A stretch of 64,000 nucleotides of DNA from an uncultured Chloroflexia bacterium (GCA_963847595.1 CAWKAJ010000001.1:759263-823262), one strand, 5' to 3'; shown: positions 17,792 to 64,000, counted from the stretch's first letter. The notes: generated by a model from the sequence alone, not told the origin. Made by a program: numbers and translations.

Positions 17792-17920
17792 AGAGGCCGT
17801 GTGGTAAGGGGGAGTGCAGAGGGGCAAAGCCCCTTTGCCGAGGGCTTGGGGGTGTCCCCCAAACTTATAATTCCCCCAAGACTGGGGGACAGGGGGTTGA
17901 AAAATGGTTATGTAGATAAC
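17792..17920 (+). repeat. Triple-hairpin intergenic repeat, copy 2
   Basis: Same consensus as copy 1. Sits in the divergent intergenic region. Confidence 0.9.
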
Positions 17921-24920: not shown

Positions 24921-25054
24921 TGAGATTGTTTAGCAACTGGGGAGTCCAGAGGAGCAAAGCCACTTTGACGGGGGTCTGGGGGTGTCCCCCAGCTTCTAAA
25001 GTCCCCCAAGAGTGGGGGATATAGGGGGTTGAAAAAGGATTCATAAACAATCTC
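24921..25054 (+). repeat. Triple-hairpin intergenic repeat, copy 4 (most complete; flanked by inverted GAGATTGTTTA/TAAACAATCTC)
   Basis: Three hairpins plus 11-bp terminal inverted repeats. Confidence 0.9.
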
Positions 25055-31534: not shown

Positions 31535-31665
31535 GGTCGTTTAGCAACTGGGGAGTGCAGATGGGCCAAGCCCCTTTGCCAGGGGCTTGGGGTATCCCCC
31601 AAATCTTAAAAGTCCCCCAAGATTGGGGGATATAGGGGGTTGAAAAGAGGTTTTAGACGCCCTCG
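31535..31665 (+). repeat. Triple-hairpin intergenic repeat, copy 5
   Basis: Shares the left flank GTTTAGCAACTGG with copy 4. Confidence 0.9.
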
Positions 31666-50718: not shown

Positions 50719-52158
50719 CTAGCGTCCAATGAATACCGCGCCCCCGCCACCAAAACCACCTAGCCCCAAACCTCCCCGTAAAGTGCTGCTGGAAGTGCTA
50801 CTAGACGTGCTGGTGGAGGTAACCACTACCATATCACCTGCGTTGAGCCCCGACACCACCTCGGTCGACGTGCCATTGCTGGAACCCAGCTTGACCGCTC
50901 TCACCTCGGGCACACCGTTAACCATCACCGTTACCGTAGGGTTAGTGGAGCTGCTGCCGCTGATAGCCGTCGAGGCTACCAGCAGGACATTGTCTACCTC
51001 TTGAGTCGTAATGGTAGCTGTAGCGCTCATCCCTTGCCGCAACTGAACCCCTGAAGGTACGGTCAAGTTAATGGTGACCGGGTATGACACCACTCCAGAC
51101 TGGGAATTTCCCAGGATTGAAATAGTGGAGACCACCCCGGAAAACTCATCGTTCGGCAGGGCATCCAGAGATACGGCCACCTTCTGCCCCACCTGCATCT
51201 GCGGGACATCGATCTCATCCACAGTGGCGCTCACTTCGACATCAGACGGGTCTACTATCACAATGGCAACCGTACCGGCATTCACCGTCTGCCCCGCCAC
51301 AATATTTACCGCAGTCACGATACCATCGAATGGAGCCACCATGGTAGCGTTCCCCGGTGTTGCCAGCGCCTCATCGAGGGCAGCCTGAGCACTTGCCACC
51401 TGCTGCTGTTTCAACTCCAGGTCCGGAGAGCCTGGCCCCGCGTTCGTCAGCGCCTGTTCGGCTGCAGTCAGGTTGTCCTGGGCATCGGCCACAGCCTTAT
51501 CCGCGTTCTGCTGGGCAATCTCAAGATTAAGGTTCGCTGTCTGTAACTGTATCGCTGCATTTTGCAAATCCCCAGCAGTGATACTTCCACTCATGAACCG
51601 CGTCAGGCTATTATTGTAATTTTGGGTGGCAGTGTCCACCGCATACTGCGCGTTGGCAATATTGAGAGGCCCCTGGGTCTGAGCATTAGAAAGCTGCTGC
51701 TGCGCTTCCTCCACAGCCCGTTGGGCATCGGCAACGCCCTGTGTCTGTGCGTTCTGCAGAGCGTCCTGTGCATCCCTCAGGGCGATTTTGTCGCTGGTCA
51801 CCGACTCCTGCCAAGATAGAATGGTTGCGTTATCGAGCTCGGCGAGTACATCACCTTGCTTAACGGAATCGCCTACCCCTGCATTCACCTCCTGCACAGT
51901 GCCCGCACTGCCGAAAGTGAGATCATCTATATTGGCGAAAACCAGGCTGCCGCTGGCGCTCACCGAGTTGGTCAGGTTTCCATACTGTACTCGCACAAGT
52001 CGGGCGTTAGCCGGAAGCGATGACGATGAGGTACTGGCGCTGCTGGCTCGGCCGTAGGCGCCGTAGAACCCCCCAACGATACCACAGACTATCAACAGCA
52101 GCACCACCACCTGCCATGCTTTCAACGTTATAAATATCTTAAGCATCTTTCCCTCCAC
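50719..52158 (-). CDS. HlyD/MacA-like periplasmic adaptor (membrane fusion) protein
   Basis: N-terminal TM, a lipoyl-like domain, a long coiled-coil hairpin, a beta-barrel, and a Ser/Thr/Gly-rich tail. Confidence 0.85.
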   Translation of the reverse strand: MEGKMLKIFITLKAWQVVVLLLIVCGIVGGFYGAYGRASSASTSSSSLPANARLVRVQYGNLTNSVSASGSLVFANIDDLTFGSAGTVQEVNAGVGDSVKQGDVLAELDNATILSWQESVTSDKIALRDAQDALQNAQTQGVADAQRAVEEAQQQLSNAQTQGPLNIANAQYAVDTATQNYNNSLTRFMSGSITAGDLQNAAIQLQTANLNLEIAQQNADKAVADAQDNLTAAEQALTNAGPGSPDLELKQQQVASAQAALDEALATPGNATMVAPFDGIVTAVNIVAGQTVNAGTVAIVIVDPSDVEVSATVDEIDVPQMQVGQKVAVSLDALPNDEFSGVVSTISILGNSQSGVVSYPVTINLTVPSGVQLRQGMSATATITTQEVDNVLLVASTAISGSSSTNPTVTVMVNGVPEVRAVKLGSSNGTSTEVVSGLNAGDMVVVTSTSTSSSTSSSTLRGGLGLGGFGGGGAVFIGR

Positions 52159-52443
52159 AATTGCTAAACAAACAATTTATCTCGTATTATGCAACCCTTA
52201 TATGGAGATATTATGGATAAATTACGTTTTTCTAATGTAATTATGCTCTCGCCTTAGTAACCGAGCGGTGTTTCACCCGCCAGATTGTATTTGCTGAAGG
52301 TGGGACAACCTTCCGCAGATGCAGCCCAAATTCCCCGCAATGAAAAATACCTTCGAGCTTGAGACCTGTGCCATTTCGCCCCCTCCCCACCGCCTCCATT
52401 GGCTTCTTAGCGATTTTACCCTTATAGTAAATAATTGAGTATT

Positions 52444-52491
52444 AAGAAGTCATAAAATTTGGCGGGGAAAAATCATAAACTTGTAACATTT
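52444..52491 (+). promoter_or_regulatory. Bipartite intergenic motif, copy D
   Basis: AAGAAGTCATAAAAT-N27-ACATTT. Lies between the terminator at 52566-52600 and the operon start at 52158. Confidence 0.5.
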
Positions 52492-52565
52492 CTGGAGGAT
52501 GGCCGCTCAGTCCCATCTGGTGGAGCAGATAGCTTCACACTTTCCACTGGACTGCGGGGGAAAAT

Positions 52566-52600
52566 CTAGGGGGCATCCGCCTCGGGCGGATGCCCCCTAG
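52566..52600 (-). terminator. Intrinsic terminator (16-bp perfect stem CTAGGGGGCATCCGCC/GGCGGATGCCCCCTAG, then ATTTT on the minus strand)
   Basis: Lies 30 nt downstream of the 52630 gene end. Confidence 0.75.
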
Positions 52601-52629
52601 ATAAGCTGTTCGCTGTTTTCCTAAATGCC

Positions 52630-53841
52630 TTAGCTTGCCCAGATTGCGTCTATTATCTTTGTCCTTATCATGCGGAACGCGGGGATGAATGCCGAGACTG
52701 CGGCGACGCCGCACAGTATCAACGCCGAGGATATGAGATATGGGATATTCACCGGCAGGAATACGTCCCCAAATGGGAAGTGGAAAGGATAATGTGCCTC
52801 CAGGGGCACAACGCCGTATCTGAATATCAAAGCTGCTGCAAGTATTCCCACAATCGCGTAGACAATGGCACGAAAGATGTAAGAGGTTACTATCGAAGAC
52901 CCTGTTATGCCGATAGCGCGCTGTATACCGATTTGCCTTCGCTTGTTCACCAGGTCAACGTACGTAATGATGAAGATTGTGATCGCTGCCACAATAAAAG
53001 CAGTCGCCCGTAGTATGACAATTATCTGCTTAAAGCTGTCTGTCATGCTTCTCAGAAACCCTTCATAATCCTCCCAGGTCTGAAACTTCAGTCCTGGCCT
53101 AACGCCATTTATTTCCTCTATCACCGATTCCAGCTTAACGTTATCTTGAGTCTTCACATGTATGAAGGACGCCTTATCCTCCATCAAGGGGTTCATGGCA
53201 TTGAACTCTTTTTCGGTTATGTACGCTCTCACATCGCCCTGAGTCAATTCAGTATAGAATATGCCCTTCACTGTATATTCCTTCTGCACACCGCCTACAT
53301 AATTGACTGATACTCGGTCCCCCGCATGGACAGACTTGAGAGAACTTGAATAAAGCGCGAGGTCCTTCCGGTCGCTTCCGGCAATCTGAACGCCCAGAAG
53401 AATCTGGTCGGTGTCTTCCGGAGCCAGATAGCTGCCCTCAATTATGTCCTGCGAGATCTGAAACACTTTGCTGTCCTGGTCCGGATCAATGGCGTAGACC
53501 ACAGTTGTAGCGCGCTCTCCTTCATAACTGATGTCAGCCCCTAGGCTATTACGTGCACATGCCGCACTAACTCCATTTAGAGACTCGATCTGGGAAACAA
53601 GCTCGCTTGCATTACCTATGGCCAGTGCTTCCCCCGCAGGCTGCACCACAACATCCCCTGACATAGTATTTATGGTTTTATCGTTGACGGTTTCCACAGC
53701 TCCATCGAGAAGAGCAGGTGTGAAAAGGAGATTGAGGTATACCAGGATCAACATAGCGATAGTGAGCAGAAGAACCCTGACATTTCCTCTTGCTATGGAC
53801 TTGATCGCCAGGAAAGTTGCTACTTTAAGCGAGTTCATCAC
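52630..53841 (-). CDS. ABC transporter permease (FtsX-like)
   Basis: TM1, an extracytoplasmic domain and a C-terminal 3-TM FtsX bundle. Confidence 0.85.
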   Translation of the reverse strand: MMNSLKVATFLAIKSIARGNVRVLLLTIAMLILVYLNLLFTPALLDGAVETVNDKTINTMSGDVVVQPAGEALAIGNASELVSQIESLNGVSAACARNSLGADISYEGERATTVVYAIDPDQDSKVFQISQDIIEGSYLAPEDTDQILLGVQIAGSDRKDLALYSSSLKSVHAGDRVSVNYVGGVQKEYTVKGIFYTELTQGDVRAYITEKEFNAMNPLMEDKASFIHVKTQDNVKLESVIEEINGVRPGLKFQTWEDYEGFLRSMTDSFKQIIVILRATAFIVAAITIFIITYVDLVNKRRQIGIQRAIGITGSSIVTSYIFRAIVYAIVGILAAALIFRYGVVPLEAHYPFHFPFGDVFLPVNIPYLISSALILCGVAAVSAFIPAFRMIRTKIIDAIWAS

Positions 53842-56771: not shown

Positions 56772-56830
56772 GGTCGTTCCGGAACTGGGGAGTCCCCCAA
56801 GACTAGGGGATTTAGGTGGTTGAAAAATGC
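56772..56830 (+). repeat. Triple-hairpin repeat, copy 6 (internally deleted; only the left flank, hairpin 3 and the tail remain)
   Basis: AACTGGGGAGT is joined directly to CCCCCAAGACTAGGGGATTTAGGTGGTTGAAAAA. Confidence 0.7.
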
Positions 56831-57553: not shown

Positions 57554-60262
57554 TCACGAGAGCCTGATTCGGGCATCGACTACCGCATACCCGCGTTCCA
57601 ATGCCTTCAACGGATTAAGGTCCATCTCCATTATCTGCGGAAAATCTTCTACCATCGCCGAAACCCTCAGCAAGAGTTCCTCAAGCGCCTTTATGTCGGA
57701 GGGCTTCGCCCCTCTCCAGCCTTCGAGGAGTCGATAGGCTTTGATAGAACGCACCATCTCCTGAGCATCGATATCTGACAGCGGATGAATGCGAAACACG
57801 GCGTCTTTGAACAGCTCGGTATAAATGCCGCCCATGCCGAACATGATAAGCGGACCGAAAGACGGGTCCTGGGTTACACCGACGATCACCTCGACTCCCT
57901 CCGTCACCATCTTCTGAACGAGCACCCCGTCCATCTCACCTTCTTTTGAGATACGGGCCAGGCGCTCCTTTATCTGAAGGAAAGCCCCCCGTGCCTCATC
58001 CTCCGAATGGACATCCAGGACCACGCCGCCAACCTCCGTCTTATGGATTATTGTCCTGGAGACGAGTTTCACCGCGACGGGAAAGCCCATCGCCTTGGCT
58101 GCCTTCATCGTCTCCTCAGCCGTCCTGGCCGTCTTCGATTCCACCACACGAACGCCATAGCACCCCAGTAGTTCGTTGACGGAATCAGCGTCAAGCCAGA
58201 AGGGGCGAGCCTGGTCTTGCTTCAATGCTGAATTCACTATCTGCTCAGCCCGCTTCTTATCGATACCCGCCAGTTCCGGGATTGTCCCCTTCGGTCTCCT
58301 CAGCCATTCGCCGTACTCGCAAGCCGCAGCGAGTGCAGTAGCAGTAGCCTCCGGGAAGGTAAAGGAAGGGACATAACCCTCCTCGCGAGAGCCCAGCTCT
58401 ATGGAGGCGCCGCGCGAGCCCATGAACGAAGCCAGAAGAGTCTTGCCGCGCTGTCGGAACTGCGGCGCAACCTCCCGAATGGCACTGGCTACCGCTTCCG
58501 CCTGCGTAACTATGGGCGGGATGAAGATAACTATCACTATGTCTATGCTCTCGTCCTGCGCCATGAGATTGAGAGCTTTCCTGTATTGCTCGGCAGTAGC
58601 TTCGGCAGTCATATCGATAGGGTTAGTGACATTAGCCCGGGGCGGCAGGAAAGTCTCCAGCTCTGAAATGGTCTTCTCGGAGAGGACAGGCAATTCAATG
58701 CCCCTCGCCGCACAGGCGTCCGCAGTCATTATCCCCGGCCCGCCGCCGTTGGTAATTATGGCCAGTCTTCTCCCCGACGGTATGGGCTGGTGAGTTAGCA
58801 GGTTCGCCACATCGAACAGCTCCTCCAGCGTATCCACACGGATGAGGCCTGCCTGCCAGAACAGGGCTCCCGCAAGCACCTCGGTGGTGGCCAGCGCCCC
58901 CGTATGCGATGCGGCAGCCCTGGAGCCTGCTGAAGTGCGCCCGCTCTTCACCGCTATTACCGGCTTGGTCTCTGCCACGCTGCGGGCTATGCGAGCGAAT
59001 TTTCGGGGATTGCCGAAAGATTCCAGGTAAAGCAGGATGACGTGAGTAGCCGGGTCTTCTTGCCAGTACTGGAGGAGGTCATTGTTCGATACGTCAGCCC
59101 TGTTCCCCAGGCTGACGAAGGTCGACAGCCCCAAATTCAGGCTTTGCGCATATTCCAGAATGGCAAGCCCCAGGGCGCCGCTCTGGGTGCCGAAGGCGAC
59201 GCTTCCCGCAGGAGGGTAGACCAGGGAGAAAGTGGCATTCATATTGACATTCTTACCGGTATTTATTATCCCCATACAATTTGGGCCGACCAGACGCATC
59301 CCGTATGCGCGAGCTGTCTCCAGCAGTTTTCTCTCCTCCTCCTTGCCTTCGGAACCGCTTTCCCCGAAGCCGGCCGATACTATTACAACGCCGCGCACAC
59401 CCTTTCGCCCGCACTGCTCCAGGACCTGATGCACTCCCTCTGCTGGAACAATAATCACTGCCAGGTCTACATCTCCCACAATGTCGAGAACGGACGGATA
59501 CACCTTGACCGAAGCCACCATCTCGGCATTCGGGTTCACCGGATATGCAATTCCGTTGAAACCCTGCAGCAGCAAATTGCGGAACAGCGTATGGCCTATA
59601 CTCCCCTCTCTTCGCGAAGCGCCGATAACAGCTATGGAGCGGGGCGCGAGAAAAGCTCTTAGAGAAGCTATAGTGGCGACTTTCTCCCGCTCAGCGGACT
59701 TCTCTTCCACCGCAGGAGTCGGTGCAATATCCAGAACCACGCGGTAAACGCCTGAGTCGACCTGGTTCGCTACCCGGAAGCCGCTGTCCCTCATCACATT
59801 CATCATTTGCTCGTTCTCCACCAGCACCTCAGCCTCAAAACGCCTTATCTTTTTCTCTCTCGCTATCGTGGCCAACTGCTCCAGCAACTGGGTCCCGATG
59901 CCTCTCTGCTGGTACGCATCCTCGACCACCAGGGCCATCTCGGCAGCATCGCCCTTGGGAAGCCGCGCATAGCGTCCCACAGCGATAATTTTCTCCTCAG
60001 CCTCCTCCCCGGAAGTTGCCACCAGGGCAAAAGTATTATCGTAATCTACGGTGCAGAAGCGCCGTGCTTGCTCTTTAGGCAGATTTGTCAAGACCTGGTG
60101 AAACCTCAGATAGATAGTATGGGGGCTCATGCGATAGAAAAAAGCGAGCAGTCTCTCCTCGTCATCCTGCCGGATGGGCCGCAGATGTAAAGTAGCGCCA
60201 TCCTTGAGTATTACTGCTGTCTCGTATTTGTCCAGGCTATTGTCGCTCGGATTTCCAGTCAT
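57554..60262 (-). CDS. Bifunctional GNAT acetyltransferase / ADP-forming acyl-CoA synthetase-like protein (Pat-like, GNAT at the N-terminus)
   Basis: N-terminal GNAT (QQRGIGTQLLEQL), a CoA-binding domain (IAVIGASRREGSIGH), a ligase-CoA domain and a C-terminal ATP-grasp. 902 aa. Confidence 0.85.
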   Translation of the reverse strand: MTGNPSDNSLDKYETAVILKDGATLHLRPIRQDDEERLLAFFYRMSPHTIYLRFHQVLTNLPKEQARRFCTVDYDNTFALVATSGEEAEEKIIAVGRYARLPKGDAAEMALVVEDAYQQRGIGTQLLEQLATIAREKKIRRFEAEVLVENEQMMNVMRDSGFRVANQVDSGVYRVVLDIAPTPAVEEKSAEREKVATIASLRAFLAPRSIAVIGASRREGSIGHTLFRNLLLQGFNGIAYPVNPNAEMVASVKVYPSVLDIVGDVDLAVIIVPAEGVHQVLEQCGRKGVRGVVIVSAGFGESGSEGKEEERKLLETARAYGMRLVGPNCMGIINTGKNVNMNATFSLVYPPAGSVAFGTQSGALGLAILEYAQSLNLGLSTFVSLGNRADVSNNDLLQYWQEDPATHVILLYLESFGNPRKFARIARSVAETKPVIAVKSGRTSAGSRAAASHTGALATTEVLAGALFWQAGLIRVDTLEELFDVANLLTHQPIPSGRRLAIITNGGGPGIMTADACAARGIELPVLSEKTISELETFLPPRANVTNPIDMTAEATAEQYRKALNLMAQDESIDIVIVIFIPPIVTQAEAVASAIREVAPQFRQRGKTLLASFMGSRGASIELGSREEGYVPSFTFPEATATALAAACEYGEWLRRPKGTIPELAGIDKKRAEQIVNSALKQDQARPFWLDADSVNELLGCYGVRVVESKTARTAEETMKAAKAMGFPVAVKLVSRTIIHKTEVGGVVLDVHSEDEARGAFLQIKERLARISKEGEMDGVLVQKMVTEGVEVIVGVTQDPSFGPLIMFGMGGIYTELFKDAVFRIHPLSDIDAQEMVRSIKAYRLLEGWRGAKPSDIKALEELLLRVSAMVEDFPQIMEMDLNPLKALERGYAVVDARIRLS

Positions 60263-60390
60263 CGGTGCACTTCCTCCTCCTTCACCACACTCAACGCAGC
60301 CTCACCGGAAGTATCGGGCTGGCCACATTGCATTAGAAACAGATGCACCTAATCATACATTACATGTCAAGTTCAGAAAAGGAGGACAAA

Positions 60391-60660
60391 GCAATCTCCT
60401 CGTACTCGATAACGTTTCACATGTCATTGCGAGAAGTCCGCCTCTGGCGGACGACGAGGCAATCTCCCCGTACTCGATAACGTTTCACATGTCATTGCGA
60501 GGAGTCCCCTCTGGCGGACGACGTGGCAATCTCCCCGTACTCGATAACGTTTCACATGTCATTGCGAGGAGTCCCCTCTGGCGGATGACGTGGCAATCTC
60601 CTCGTACTCGATAACGTTTCACATGTCATTGCGAGAAATCCGCCTCTGGCGGATGCCACC
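60391..60660 (+). repeat. Tandem repeat, 4 x 67-68 bp
   Basis: Units start at 60391, 60459, 60526 and 60593. Unit: GCAATCTCCyCGTACTCGATAACGTTTCACATGTCATTGCGAGrAGTCC(G)CCTCTGGCGGAyGACGwG. Confidence 0.95.
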
Positions 60661-60949
60661 TATCAAGAAAATAGAAGACTTAGGCTTCTGTGTGTCATTC
60701 TGGGATGAGCAATGGCCACCGACAATAACACTAGAATCCGGTATCATAGTACTCGGAGTCGAACTTTGGGTCAAGCGACTCGCTGCCGTCGCTTTAGAGA
60801 ATAGTGTATTTCACGGCACAGAAAAGGTTAGCCCGCTACCTCGTTAGGCTAGCCTTCTTTGCCACCTTTCTCAGAGAACTCGCTTTATGAAATAGGCTCT
60901 ATTGTGACTTTCATGGGTTGCGGGTTGCCGCGCTCTTTAACCTGCTCTT

Positions 60950-61168
60950 TCACGGGGTAAGGACCAGGCTTCGCCTTGCGGGTTCCTTCTCCTCCTCTTT
61001 GCTAATCAGACCTGCCTTCCTGGCTGCACTGCAAGTATTGCTGTCATCATGAGTCAGGCCATTGTCATCAACAAAGATTATGGAGTTCGCCTTGAATAGC
61101 TTCTCTCTACTCCTGGCCGCATTCAGTCGCTGAAATCATTCCATAGCACCATCCTCTGTCTTATCCAT
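60950..61168 (-). pseudogene. Degenerate paralog of the small gene at 62460-62786 (in-frame TGA; the original start is frameshifted)
   Basis: MDKTEDGAME*FQRLNAARSREKLFKANSIIFVDDNGLTHDD...ARKAGLISKEEE aligns to MTEDGYMRLNAARDKEKALKDKPIVFVDDHGEVHDD...AREAGLLAKEKE. Confidence 0.65.
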
Positions 61169-61247
61169 GCCAAAAATTAGCCATTCGACATCGCTACCTC
61201 CTCTGACTCAGCATGAGTCAGCCCATGACACCAGCCCTTCTGTTTTT

Positions 61248-61275
61248 AGATTAACCCACTTTTTCGGTTTGTCAC
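61248..61275 (-). promoter_or_regulatory. Sigma70-like promoter module (GTGACA-N16-TAATCT) upstream of the degenerate small gene
   Basis: One of three copies of the same ~40-nt block. The others are at 62937-62964 and 63097-63124. Confidence 0.5.
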
Positions 61276-61418
61276 GTTCGAAACCTTTTTATTAGCGTGA
61301 ACGTATTGCATAATTTTCGTGAGTCACTGACCTGCAATAGTCGTACGGAACGTATTTATCAGTGACCTGTCGATACTAATTTATCATGAGTTGACAATGA
61401 CGAAAAAGAAGGAAGATT

Positions 61419-62523
61419 AGGCTTAGGAGGCCCACACGGATGGATGGGATATTTTGATGGGAATCGTGAACATCGTTCCTAGCCTACTCCTATCATTTGC
61501 TATGGCGGCCGGGCATCGTGACGAGGTTATGGTGTGATATCAGAAATTCTCCAGAAATTGAACGTGATGTCGTCCGTCTGTCCGTCCATTTGATATTTGA
61601 ACGATTTGGGCGAATTTGAACAGGCATTTCGGCGCATCACAGCTTCAGGGAACAACTATACCTGCCACATGGAGGAAACAGTGGGCTAATGGACTCGACT
61701 TTTGGACGTCGTAGCGACGTCGTAATTGAAGCTAAAAGTCCAACCGTCTGTTGACCATTTGAGCGGGTTTGCGGGCATGGTAAACGACATTTCGGCGGCC
61801 CCCACGTTCACGACGACTTTTTCGACTTTGGACTTTGGGGAGTGGAAAGTCCTAGGACTTTTCAGTTTCTACGTCCAAGTCGTGAAGTCGTCATTTGCCT
61901 ATTCTTTTAACATCTGGACGCTCCTGGACGGCGCTTTTTGGCGAACCACAGCACCCTGTTTGACATGGCCTAAGAACGCGTAAGGCTTAAAAGAAGAAGC
62001 CTACAATGGATGGATGGGCTATTTTAATGGGCATCGTGAACATCGTTGCCAGGCTGCCCCTATCATTTGCCATGGTGGCCGGGCATCGTGACGAGGTCAT
62101 GGTGTTATATCAGAAATTCTCCAGAAATTGAACGTGATTTCATCCGTCTGTCCGTCCATCTATCCCTTTGACATTTGAACGGATTTGGACGAATTTGAAC
62201 AGGCATTTCGGCGCACCACAGCTTCAGGGAACAACTATACCTTCCACATGGAGGAAATAGTGGGCTAATGGACTCGACTTTTGGACGTCGTAACGACGTC
62301 GTAATTGAAGCTAAAAGTCCAACCGCCTGTTGGCCATTTGAGCGGGTTTGCGGGCATGGTAAACGACATTTCGGCGGCCCCCACGTTCACGACGACTTTT
62401 TCGACTTTGGACTTTGGGGAGTCGAAAGTCCAGGACTTTTCAGGTTTCTATGTCCAAGTCTACCGCTCCATCCCTTTGGCATCTGGACGCTCCTGGACGG
62501 CGCATTTTGGCGGACCACAGCAG
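61419..62523 (+). repeat. Large tandem direct repeat, 2 copies of ~565 bp (61419-61982 and 61983-62523), apparently non-coding
   Basis: GGATGGATGGG anchors at 61438 and 62008 (570-bp period). About 90% identity with indels that break every ORF frame. Confidence 0.9.
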
Positions 62524-62786
62524 GTCGTTTGGCAAACCGCAGAAACTTGAAGGAAAATCGAGATGAGGACCGGCCCCTGGGCTTCCTTTTCCTTCGCCAG
62601 CAGTCCGGCTTCTCTGGCATCCGAGACGTTATGGACGTCGTCGTGGACTTCGCCATGGTCGTCAACAAAGACAATGGGTTTATCCTTGAGTGCCTTCTCT
62701 TTGTCCCTGGCCGCGTTGAGGCGCATGTAGCCGTCCTCGGTCATCTCCTCTTTCTTGTCTGTGCCCTGAATCATCCACGTTGCCAT
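62460..62786 (-). CDS. Small hypothetical protein (conserved part about 75 aa; the ORF tail runs into the large repeat)
   Basis: AAGGAGG RBS. A paralogous remnant lies at 60950-61168. No family recognised. Confidence 0.55.
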   Translation of the reverse strand: MATWMIQGTDKKEEMTEDGYMRLNAARDKEKALKDKPIVFVDDHGEVHDDVHNVSDAREAGLLAKEKEAQGPVLISIFLQVSAVCQTTCCGPPKCAVQERPDAKGMER

Positions 62787-62836
62787 GGTGGCCTCCTTGT
62801 GATATCACACTGAATATCACATAGCTTTGATTTATT

Positions 62837-63168
62837 CCTCCGGCGGCCCCCCGGACAAAAAGAAAGGGCTGGCCTAACTACCTGTCCGAGGAAGTGCCAC
62901 CCTTTTTTTAACTTGTATTTTTAGATCGGTACTTTTAGCTTAACCTACTTTTTGACGATGTCAAGCGACCTATTTTTGATATCAGGACCTTGTCTGCGCT
63001 GATATCAGCCTCCGGCGGCACTCCCGGGGCAAAAAGAAAGCGGCAGCTAAACTTCCTGCCCCAGGAAGTGCTGCCGCTTTTCTATCTTGTATTTTTAGAT
63101 TAACCCAGTTTTTCGACTTGTCAAGCGACCCGTTTTTGATATCAGGACCTTATCTGCGCTGATATCAG
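62837..63168 (+). repeat. Tandem duplication of a 160-172 bp module (hairpin + promoter-like block + paired TGATATCA palindromes)
   Basis: Module 1 at 62837-63008 and module 2 at 63009-63168. Hairpins at 62863-62908 and 63037-63080 carry compensatory stem changes. Confidence 0.85.
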
Positions 63169-63398
63169 GGCTGATATTATGGCTGATATCAGGGTCCTAT
63201 CTGCGCTGATATCATACTTGATATCAGGATCTTAACAGGGCTGATATCATGATATTTGGCTGAAATTTTACCACAAATTTTCCCACATTTTTATTCAAAA
63301 TGTGAAACTATTTTGTCAGCATTTTCACGGACATTTCAGCAGATTTTAGCTGAAAATTATTCTGATATCAGACTGATATCAGCGATTTTTATACTTTT

Positions 63399-63570
63399 CA
63401 TCCGTCCGCTATTTGAACAGATTTGGACTCTGCTGAACGGCGCATTTCGGCGAACCACAGCACCCTGTTTGACATGGCCTAAGAACGCGTAAGGCTTAAA
63501 AGAAGAGGCCTACAATGGATGGATAGGATATTTTGATGGGCATCGTCGACATCGCTCCCAGGCTGCCCCT
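63399..63570 (+). repeat. Partial third copy of the ~565-bp repeat (internally deleted; spans the end/start junction)
   Basis: ...CGGCGAACCACAGCACCCTGTTTGACATGGCCTAAGAACGCGTAAGGCTTAAAAGAAGAGGCCTACAATGGATGGATAGG... matches 61940-62070. Confidence 0.85.
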
Positions 63571-64000
63571 TGAGAAATTCTTGCAGCGGAACCCGGTTAA
63601 AGACTTCGACCAATTCGCACAGAGCCTTGAAAAGAAGGGGCTGCTAACTGAACCAGCGGTCGTGAGTCGGAGTCCTCGGTTTGGTACAACGAACAGGTAG
63701 GCGGGAAGCTGCTCAGTATCCTTTTCTCCAGGAACGAGTCTTTTATTCGTTGACTCCCAGGGAAAACCAGCCGTGCTGCCCTGGGCAGACCCGATAGCCG
63801 CCAGTCATCCTGAGTTCCGTTGACAAGGTTTTAACTGAATCTACCTCAATTCCCATATTTCCGAAGCTAACTATCACCAAAACTACGATTTTCAGCTTCA
63901 ATTGAAGAACTAGCTACTTCTTTTTATATACAAAAGGTACTTTTGTAAAGTATGCTGTTCACAGAGCTATGTTTCGAGAGTGCAAATAGCTTCAGCACAT

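Follow-up and report, generated by a model that had tools for sequence, protein, structure and literature searches.

A ~700-bp divergent control region in the window, that is, the whole 64,000-nt stretch of DNA analyzed here, carries an array of the palindrome TGATATCA, lying between a small gene on the minus strand and the remnant of a second gene, p73, on the plus strand. The array is a real and conserved feature and is probably functional, and we hold the chances to be even that it is the multi-site operator of a specificity-switching regulatory module in a Chloroflexota mobile element. We infer that a protein binds and does so cooperatively, and likewise the direction of its regulation and its identity. 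Among the functions proposed when the region was read from its sequence alone (the sequence-only reading), an operator or switch proved the best supported, on account of the divergent intergenic location, the fixed distance of the proximal site from a conserved promoter-like element, and the replacement of the palindrome by others in homologous promoters.

The density of sites is far above chance. GATATC occurs 29 times in the 64-kb window versus 15.0 ± 3.7 in shuffled sequences, with 11 of the 29 falling in 62801-63380, and the extended palindrome TGATATCA occurs 12 times versus an expected 0.93 ± 1.0 (never more than 5 in 100 shuffles). These 12 are confined to 61535-63381, and 11 of them to 62800-63381. 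The dense GATATC cluster noticed in the sequence-only reading is therefore real, with small corrections: the span holds 11 perfect cores and not 12, the core put at 63244 lies at 63243, and the site in the large repeat lies at 61536 and not at 61546. The repeating unit is an 8-10-bp palindrome, yTGATATCAg, with GATATC as its core; all 11 8-mers of the array are perfect, and a one-mismatch site, TGATATTA, is found in addition at 63172. These are clustered palindromic sites of a kind suited to a dimer. Outside the insertion described below (60.7 kb of the window), TGATATCA is absent, and the 17 GATATC sites left of 60703 match the number in shuffles, with no depletion. A general compositional bias, which the sequence-only reading had wanted ruled out, is thus not seen at the scale of the window.

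The same counts bear on a proposal that the sites are EcoRV-type restriction-modification or methylation targets. The core GATATC is indeed the EcoRV recognition sequence, but the remainder of the window gives no sign of avoidance, what is conserved is the longer unit yTGATATCAg, relatives of the array tolerate TGATCTCA and TGAGATCA, both of which destroy the EcoRV site, and paralogous modules carry unrelated palindromes. We therefore regard the probability of this explanation as close to nil.

The features of the region are listed in Table 1. Sites of the core array follow one another at 23, 12, 12, 23, 12, and 23 bp, and the 23-nt centre-to-centre spacing given earlier was correct. A 31/32-nt unit with a palindrome at each end had been described as occurring three times; it is exact at 62977 and 63137, but the third copy, at 63184, is 83% identical. 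Spacers between the window sites are near-identical, as exemplified by GGACCTTATCTGCGC, which is present three times. Seven sites stand on one side of an AT-rich segment and two on the other, and T-tract periodicity in that segment reaches a power of 1.30, whereas none of 556 background windows exceeds 0.32; the segment is predicted to be intrinsically curved DNA.

Table 1. Features of the array region and of the inserted element, in window coordinates
Feature	Position	Strand	Remarks
Left part of inserted element, leaving the window at its end	60703..64000		From comparison with L001 and L268
Decayed small-gene paralogue, in-frame TGA	60950..61330	-	Own promoter-like element; TGACTCA/TGAGTCA palindromes
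Isolated TGATATCA	61535..61542		Within the first copy of the 570-nt tandem repeat; the second carries TTATATCA at 62105
Small orphan gene, 108 aa	62460..62786	-	Conserved ~70-aa N-domain; tail fused to repeated box sequence
5'-UTR site pair, TGTGATATCACA and imperfect TGAATATCACA	62798..62821		Immediately upstream of the small-gene RBS
Leader hairpin 1, with U-tract	62849..62915	-	Between P1 and RBS; folding z-scores of -2.6 to -3.1
Promoter-like P1, TTGACA-16 nt-TAAGCT	62937..62964	-	Putative, at consensus level
Site pair upstream of P1, two TGATATCA at 23 bp	62977..63007		Centred near -50 and -73
Leader hairpin 2, duplicate module	63023..63085	-	Followed by a vestigial RBS, GCCGCCGGAGG, only
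Promoter-like P2, TTGACA-16 nt-TAATCT	63097..63124	-	Putative, at consensus level
Core array, seven sites	63137..63249		63137, 63160, 63172 (one mismatch), 63184, 63207, 63219, 63242
AT-rich segment, ~110 bp	63250..63362		29% GC; T-tracts phased at 11.0 bp
Distal site pair, two TGATATCA at 11 bp	63363..63381		Sites at 63363 and 63374
~11-nt direct repeats ATTTGAAC/ATTTGGAC, three or four	63410..63460	+	Followed by box GCGCATTTCGGCGAACCACAG
p73 remnant, divergent gene	63533..63700	+	Corresponds to the first 45 aa of proteins that have 224-253 aa in complete elements

The window is chromosomal. Genes for MacB/MFP ABC transporters, a malic enzyme, LysE, and a GNAT-fused acyl-CoA synthetase (57554-60262) lie in it, and those homologues of its malic enzyme that are named (74-77% identity) come from Dehalococcoidia and Chloroflexota MAGs. 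A 1.14-Mb metagenome contig (L001) is 98% identical and syntenic with the window up to 60702 and has unrelated genes after that point, and a second locus (L268) has sequence in common with the window from 60700 on, with a different left flank. These two comparisons indicated that the DNA from 60703 to past 64000 is a strain-variable insertion. Its junction is exact, between CTG and GGATGAGCAAT, and falls within a host REP-like hairpin. We found no tRNA or tmRNA gene usable as an attachment site; an Rfam scan of the whole window at the gathering threshold and a permissive scan of 60300-64000 returned nothing relevant, and BLASTN of 60700-64000 against phage and plasmid collections gave no match.

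Several repeats and a further indel were noted in the host DNA. Just left of the insertion point, 60391-60702 consists of ~4.6 copies of a 67-nt tandem repeat, whose copy number varies in L001 and L002 and fragments of whose unit adjoin an SBF transporter gene in L265 and L267. The dispersed REP-like hairpin GTCCCCCAAGAnTGGGGGATATAGGGGGTTGAAAAA has four intergenic copies (17872-17906, 25000-25036, 31611-31646, and 56797-56830). An 894-aa PAS histidine-kinase gene of L001 (2554-5238), placed between the MFP and MacB transporter genes, is missing from the window (52158-52630), constituting a second strain-level indel.

The inserted DNA is a member of an uncharacterized family of elements in Chloroflexota/Dehalococcoidia-like bacteria, and the copy in the window is integrated and partly decayed. 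The upstream start of p73 is closed by a TGG-to-TAG change at codon 4 (63524-63526), and there is a frame change versus L265. That locus (JGI 3300035659) matches window positions 64000-63441 at 91% and extends beyond the window end, where it carries genes for proteins of 173, 224, and 348 aa (p173, p224, and p348). No recognizable DNA-binding gene lies inside the window, as the sequence-only reading had stated, and its suggestion that one might lie just past 64000 could be followed by proxy in L265: p348 is a winged-helix protein with a C-terminal HTH, but the same protein is encoded in loci that have no array. It has 211 homologues, all unnamed, and its model (pLDDT of 64) yielded Foldseek matches to generic MarR/ArsR wHTH folds only. 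The p173/p224/p348 trio is also present in L267, beside a tyrosine integrase, and in L268/L269, the p348 copies of L267 and L268 being 99% and 86% identical. Neither a TGATATCA cluster nor the small gene was found in L267 and L268, although the rest of the element is common to them. Thus, the array belongs to an accessory module and is not the partner of p348, and p348 was rejected as the binder. No relatives of p348, p224, or the 466-aa protein described next were found in IMG/VR.

In the complete 16-21-kb elements (L270, 5240-6640; L272, 3492-4754), the full-length small gene is followed by a gene for a 420-466-aa protein that has a zinc ribbon at its C terminus and, internally, three repeats of ~35 aa (KKxYxVDExG...GEYTLxEAR..SASIQ). 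Downstream lie a DnaJ-domain gene and then a glycosyltransferase gene, and none of these has a PHROG match. A possible relationship between the core motif of the small protein and the repeats of the 420-466-aa protein was dismissed as not significant (hhalign probability of 1.2%).

A 570-nt tandem duplication spans 61420-62560, with 91-94% identity, and a third, partial copy lies at 63421-63570. The submodules of this repeat each end in a box, GCGCATTTCGGCGnACCACAG, and each has its own short repeat pair, such as GGACGTCG/CGACGTCG at 61700-61722 and GGACTTT/AAAGTCC at 61822-61870. The conserved box occurs seven times in 61600-63460, and the homology breakpoints of the window, L016, L265, and L268 fall at it, indicating that the box behaves as a recombination junction.

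The array is built into a module that reads, on the minus strand, from the small gene through its RBS, the 5'-UTR site pair, a leader hairpin with a U-tract, and P1 to the 23-bp site pair. This module has been duplicated, the two copies being 160-174 bp apart, and the second has lost its gene. Both of the duplicated promoter-like elements have sites at -50/-73. The earlier observation that sites lie upstream of the -35-like hexamers and again between the leader and the RBS (62798-62821) was borne out. The TTGACA-N16/17-TAAGCT/TAATCT element is kept in eight of nine homologous upstream regions, and a strict consensus scan did not call the P1 promoter. The sites are accordingly positioned relative to putative promoters of divergent genes, these promoters having been recognized from sequence.

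The leader was also noted for its folding. Two mutually exclusive structures can be drawn for it in the window, L016, L265, and L277, one a terminator-like hairpin with a U-tract and the other a longer hairpin that pairs with the U-tract, and compensatory changes back both folds (five copies). The leader therefore looks like an attenuator; it has no Rfam match. In L277, the counterpart of hairpin 2 leads straight into a gene.

Homologous arrays were found in independent assemblies, namely, L265, L266 (ENA ERZ27247683), and L016 (a GTDB MAG), so an assembly artefact is unlikely. The 23/12-13 alternation is kept in L265 (23, 13, 23, 12, 23, and 13 bp), whose array alternates TGATATCA and TGATCTCA, and in L016 (23, 12, 23, and 13 bp). 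In an alignment for which the sites themselves supplied part of the anchoring, site columns of L265, L266, and L016 are 91-95% identical to the window versus 63-70% for non-site columns (Fisher p of 0.001 to 0.0001). The order of array, AT-rich segment, and one more site is also kept in L265 and L016, where the counterpart of the distal site is TGAGATCA and TGGTATCA, respectively. The distance from the array to the distal site varies (107, 121, and 129 bp). All TGATATCA arrays of the lineage (window, L265, L266, and L016) adjoin a copy of the small gene. A two-site pattern scan of GTDB gave 19 matches, which is close to the chance expectation, and L016 was the only homologous one; the matches in L009 (Dehalococcoidia) and L005 were set aside as unrelated hairpins.

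These comparisons bear on the case for an array with no present function, generated as a by-product of recent tandem duplication or recombination in a decaying element. The near-identical window spacers would be expected of such an event, as would the doubling of the terminator-promoter-site-pair module 160-174 bp apart, and the neighborhood is visibly decayed: the paralogue has an in-frame stop, p73 has a nonsense codon, and the small gene is truncated and has a pN/pS of ~1.1 versus L266, a value that comes from 15 changes only. It may be, then, that the small gene is drifting and the sites are retained. Nevertheless, the sites are kept in L265, L266, and L016 even though the spacers there have diverged from one another and from those of the window, the 23/12-13 alternation is conserved, and none of the 11 8-mers has lost a base. 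We consider duplication debris an improbable account of the array.

An operator is also favored by the behavior of the palindrome in related modules. The proximal palindrome lies 12-13 nt from the -35-like hexamer, in the same aligned columns, in P1, P2, L016, L272, and L277, and this aligned position is filled by CGATATCG or CGACGTC in L272 and L277. The palindrome is TGACTCA/TGAGTCA in L270 and in the window's decayed paralogue, TCGATATCGA and TCGACGTC in L272, CGACGTCG/ACGTCAG in L277, and ATCATGAT/GTGATTCAC in L275. Palindromes next to the RBS are likewise found in L016 (TGAGATCA), L270 (TGACTCA, twice), and L272 (CGATATCG). Among related modules, then, the operator-like sequence differs (TGATATCA, TGACTCA, CGATATCG, or CGACGTC) while the architecture is kept. 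A palindrome fixed in position but changing in sequence is characteristic of an operator whose specificity shifts together with its regulator.

The main rival would make the array the element's replication origin, in which initiator-binding repeats surround an AT-rich, curved unwinding segment, after the manner of SaPI-type origins or the lambda ori, possibly combined with promoter control. The layout suits this idea, with seven and two sites around a 110-bp, 29%-GC segment whose T-tracts are phased at 11 bp, with the ~11-nt direct repeats ATTTGAAC/ATTTGGAC coming next, and with the arrangement of array, AT-rich tract, and further site preserved in L265 and L016. SaPI origins consist of 6 to 12 short iterons divided by a central AT-rich region, the iterons being 5-6-nt repeats immediately downstream of the rep helicase gene (PMC9371898), and the array resembles them in that short repeats flank a central AT-rich segment (PMC9371898). 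It differs from them in having no adjacent initiator gene and in being missing beside near-identical copies of the conserved genes of the element. We found no Rep, helicase, primase, or Rep_3-type gene by the array, either in the window or in L265, and no DnaA boxes in the region; p348, the sole multidomain wHTH protein, is encoded in the array-free L267 and L268. Furthermore, the distal site lies at differing distances from the array, and other palindromes occupy the same promoter position in loci with one to three sites and no long AT-rich tract. The iteron or origin function suggested in the sequence-only reading thus has in its favor the sites that flank a phased AT-rich segment but lacks an accompanying initiator gene, and we rate it as unlikely.

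If the array is an operator, the protein encoded next to it is a candidate for its regulator. The small-protein family is rare, with 16 representative homologues among 1.84 billion proteins, and its N-domain is variable (40-65% identity). Full-length members have 163-181 aa, and the copy in the window is truncated and acidic (pI of 4.9). Domain searches of the small protein with Pfam, PHROGs, and PDB profiles returned no match and no RHH, HTH, or ParB signature, and its AlphaFold2 model, made from a three-sequence input, was unusable (pLDDT of 44). In a very small sample, the position that follows the conserved Gly (EDG-Y/F/W-xRLN) holds a residue that varies with operator type. The N-domain is our leading candidate for the binder of the array, tentatively and at somewhat less than even chances, and a trans-acting factor from a complete element or from the host is about equally likely. 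The p73 protein was discarded as the specificity determinant, since its N terminus hardly differs between TGATATCA-type and GACGTC-type loci.

The gene content bears equally on a centromere-like function, in which a partition site of the parC/parH/omega type would be coated by a small centromere-binding protein to segregate the excised element. The array has at least seven short repeats with near-helical phasing, located upstream of a small-gene promoter, as such a site would have. Against it, no Walker-type, actin-like, or tubulin-like motor gene was found in the window, L265, L270, or L272, no NTPase motif was found in the 420-466-aa protein encoded after the full-length small gene, the small protein has no RHH or ParB signature, and the element is integrated in the chromosome. 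A ParB-parS system fits no better, since the motif has 8-10 bp and not the 16 bp of a parS palindrome, and there is no ParB domain. With no ParA/ParM/TubZ-type motor, ParB, or RHH gene in the window or in its longer relatives, the centromere or parS function suggested earlier was not sustained, and we think it very improbable.

The array can be compared with known systems. As in the lambdoid operators OR1-3/OL1-3 of heteroimmune phages, dimer-type palindromes are spaced 23-24 bp centre to centre in a divergent control region, and the architecture is kept while the operator sequence changes among related elements. Unlike lambdoid operators, the array sites are only 8-10 bp long, number at least 11, and lie not over the core promoter but upstream of the -35 hexamer and in the 5'-UTR, and no recognizable CI/Cro-like HTH gene lies by the array. 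Repeat arrays bound by RHH proteins include the omega heptads of pSM19035, the ParR-parC system of R1, the ParG-parH system of TP228, and the MetJ metboxes. The array has in common with these its many short, roughly helically spaced repeats upstream of a small-gene promoter, and with the metboxes an 8-bp palindromic unit; as in the RHH-bound systems, one array could serve both repression and formation of a higher-order complex. It differs from them in that adjacent proteins have no RHH signature, there is no partition motor, and the spacing is 23/12 instead of contiguous.

Unrelated arrays of the same palindrome were sought by three-site pattern scans for TGATATCA, which matched at least 120 stretches of viral contigs and at least 120 of metagenome contigs. 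The matches listed are heterogeneous, including one gut-phage lineage, giant-virus sequences, probably eukaryotic repeats, and others, and none of those listed encodes relatives of the element's proteins. About 50 of the listed matches belong to a single ~56-kb gut-phage lineage (IMG/VR sample 3300045988, L044-L141), which carries seven or eight TGATATCA in ~80 bp of intergenic DNA (e.g., L083, 5534-5922). In these phages, the array separates an RHH-like gene of 88 aa from an Arc/HicB-type gene of 151 aa and stands directly upstream of the latter. The 8-bp palindrome is the same, but the spacing differs (22, 14, 8, 14, 14, 19, and 14 bp) and there is no homology past the motif, so these RHH-adjacent arrays support an operator by analogy only and not by homology. 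A control palindrome of the same composition, TCATATGA, gave 58 viral matches; because clusters of it, too, are frequent in viral contigs, a palindrome cluster is of little significance by itself, as is the wide occurrence of TGATATCA arrays, and such clusters are a generic feature of mobile-element control regions. A literature search for the motif returned primers and unrelated sequences only. A high-GC metagenome contig (L263, 11892-12060) was observed to carry nine copies of another palindrome-array motif, GTGATATCAC, with spacings of 21, 31, 23, 11, and 21 bp; that array adjoins an ORF resembling a reverse transcriptase by eye and is unrelated in sequence to the one in the window.

Taking the array as an operator, we propose the following mode of action. 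A sequence-specific and probably dimeric regulator would bind one dimer per 8-10-bp palindrome, and pairs at 23 bp, about two helical turns, would be bound cooperatively. The 23/12 alternation, the predicted curved AT-rich segment, and the distal pair could together assemble one higher-order protein complex, which would control the small-gene promoter or promoters from -50/-73 and from the 5'-UTR beside the RBS and may control the oppositely oriented gene too. The palindrome would be the specificity determinant of the module, such that related modules keep the promoter, leader, and gene and swap the palindrome, as heteroimmune phages do. Several observations weigh against this proposal, among them the following: the sites at -50 and -73 leave the core promoter uncovered, at least 11 sites are far more than simple autoregulation requires, and the small protein is acidic and truncated, with no recognizable DNA-binding domain.

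A broader version joins the array to its neighbor. The ~70-aa N-domain may be a previously undescribed sequence-specific DNA-binding module that has co-diversified with the palindromic operators (TGATATCA, TGACTCA, CGATATCG, and CGACGTC), the combinations defining immunity-like groups in elements of Dehalococcoidia/Chloroflexota, and the 11-site array in a decayed copy would then be an operator sink that responds to, or titrates, the regulator of a coresident complete element. We put this combined version forward as an unlikely one.

A palindromic operator cluster in the control region of a mobile element is ordinary in kind; the interest here lies in a dark-matter element and, possibly, in a new DNA-binding module. 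To our knowledge, next to no characterization exists of mobile elements in uncultured Chloroflexota and Dehalococcoidia, and for the proteins of this family, the only known domains are a single winged helix and the tyrosine integrase that some copies encode. The array offers a testable entry point to such elements, with a defined 8-10-bp site, a conserved geometry, few candidate binders, and natural specificity variants. If the small protein does not bind, the array can still be used as bait for the true regulator; if it does, it would provide a new DNA-binding fold together with an immunity-type classification of the elements.
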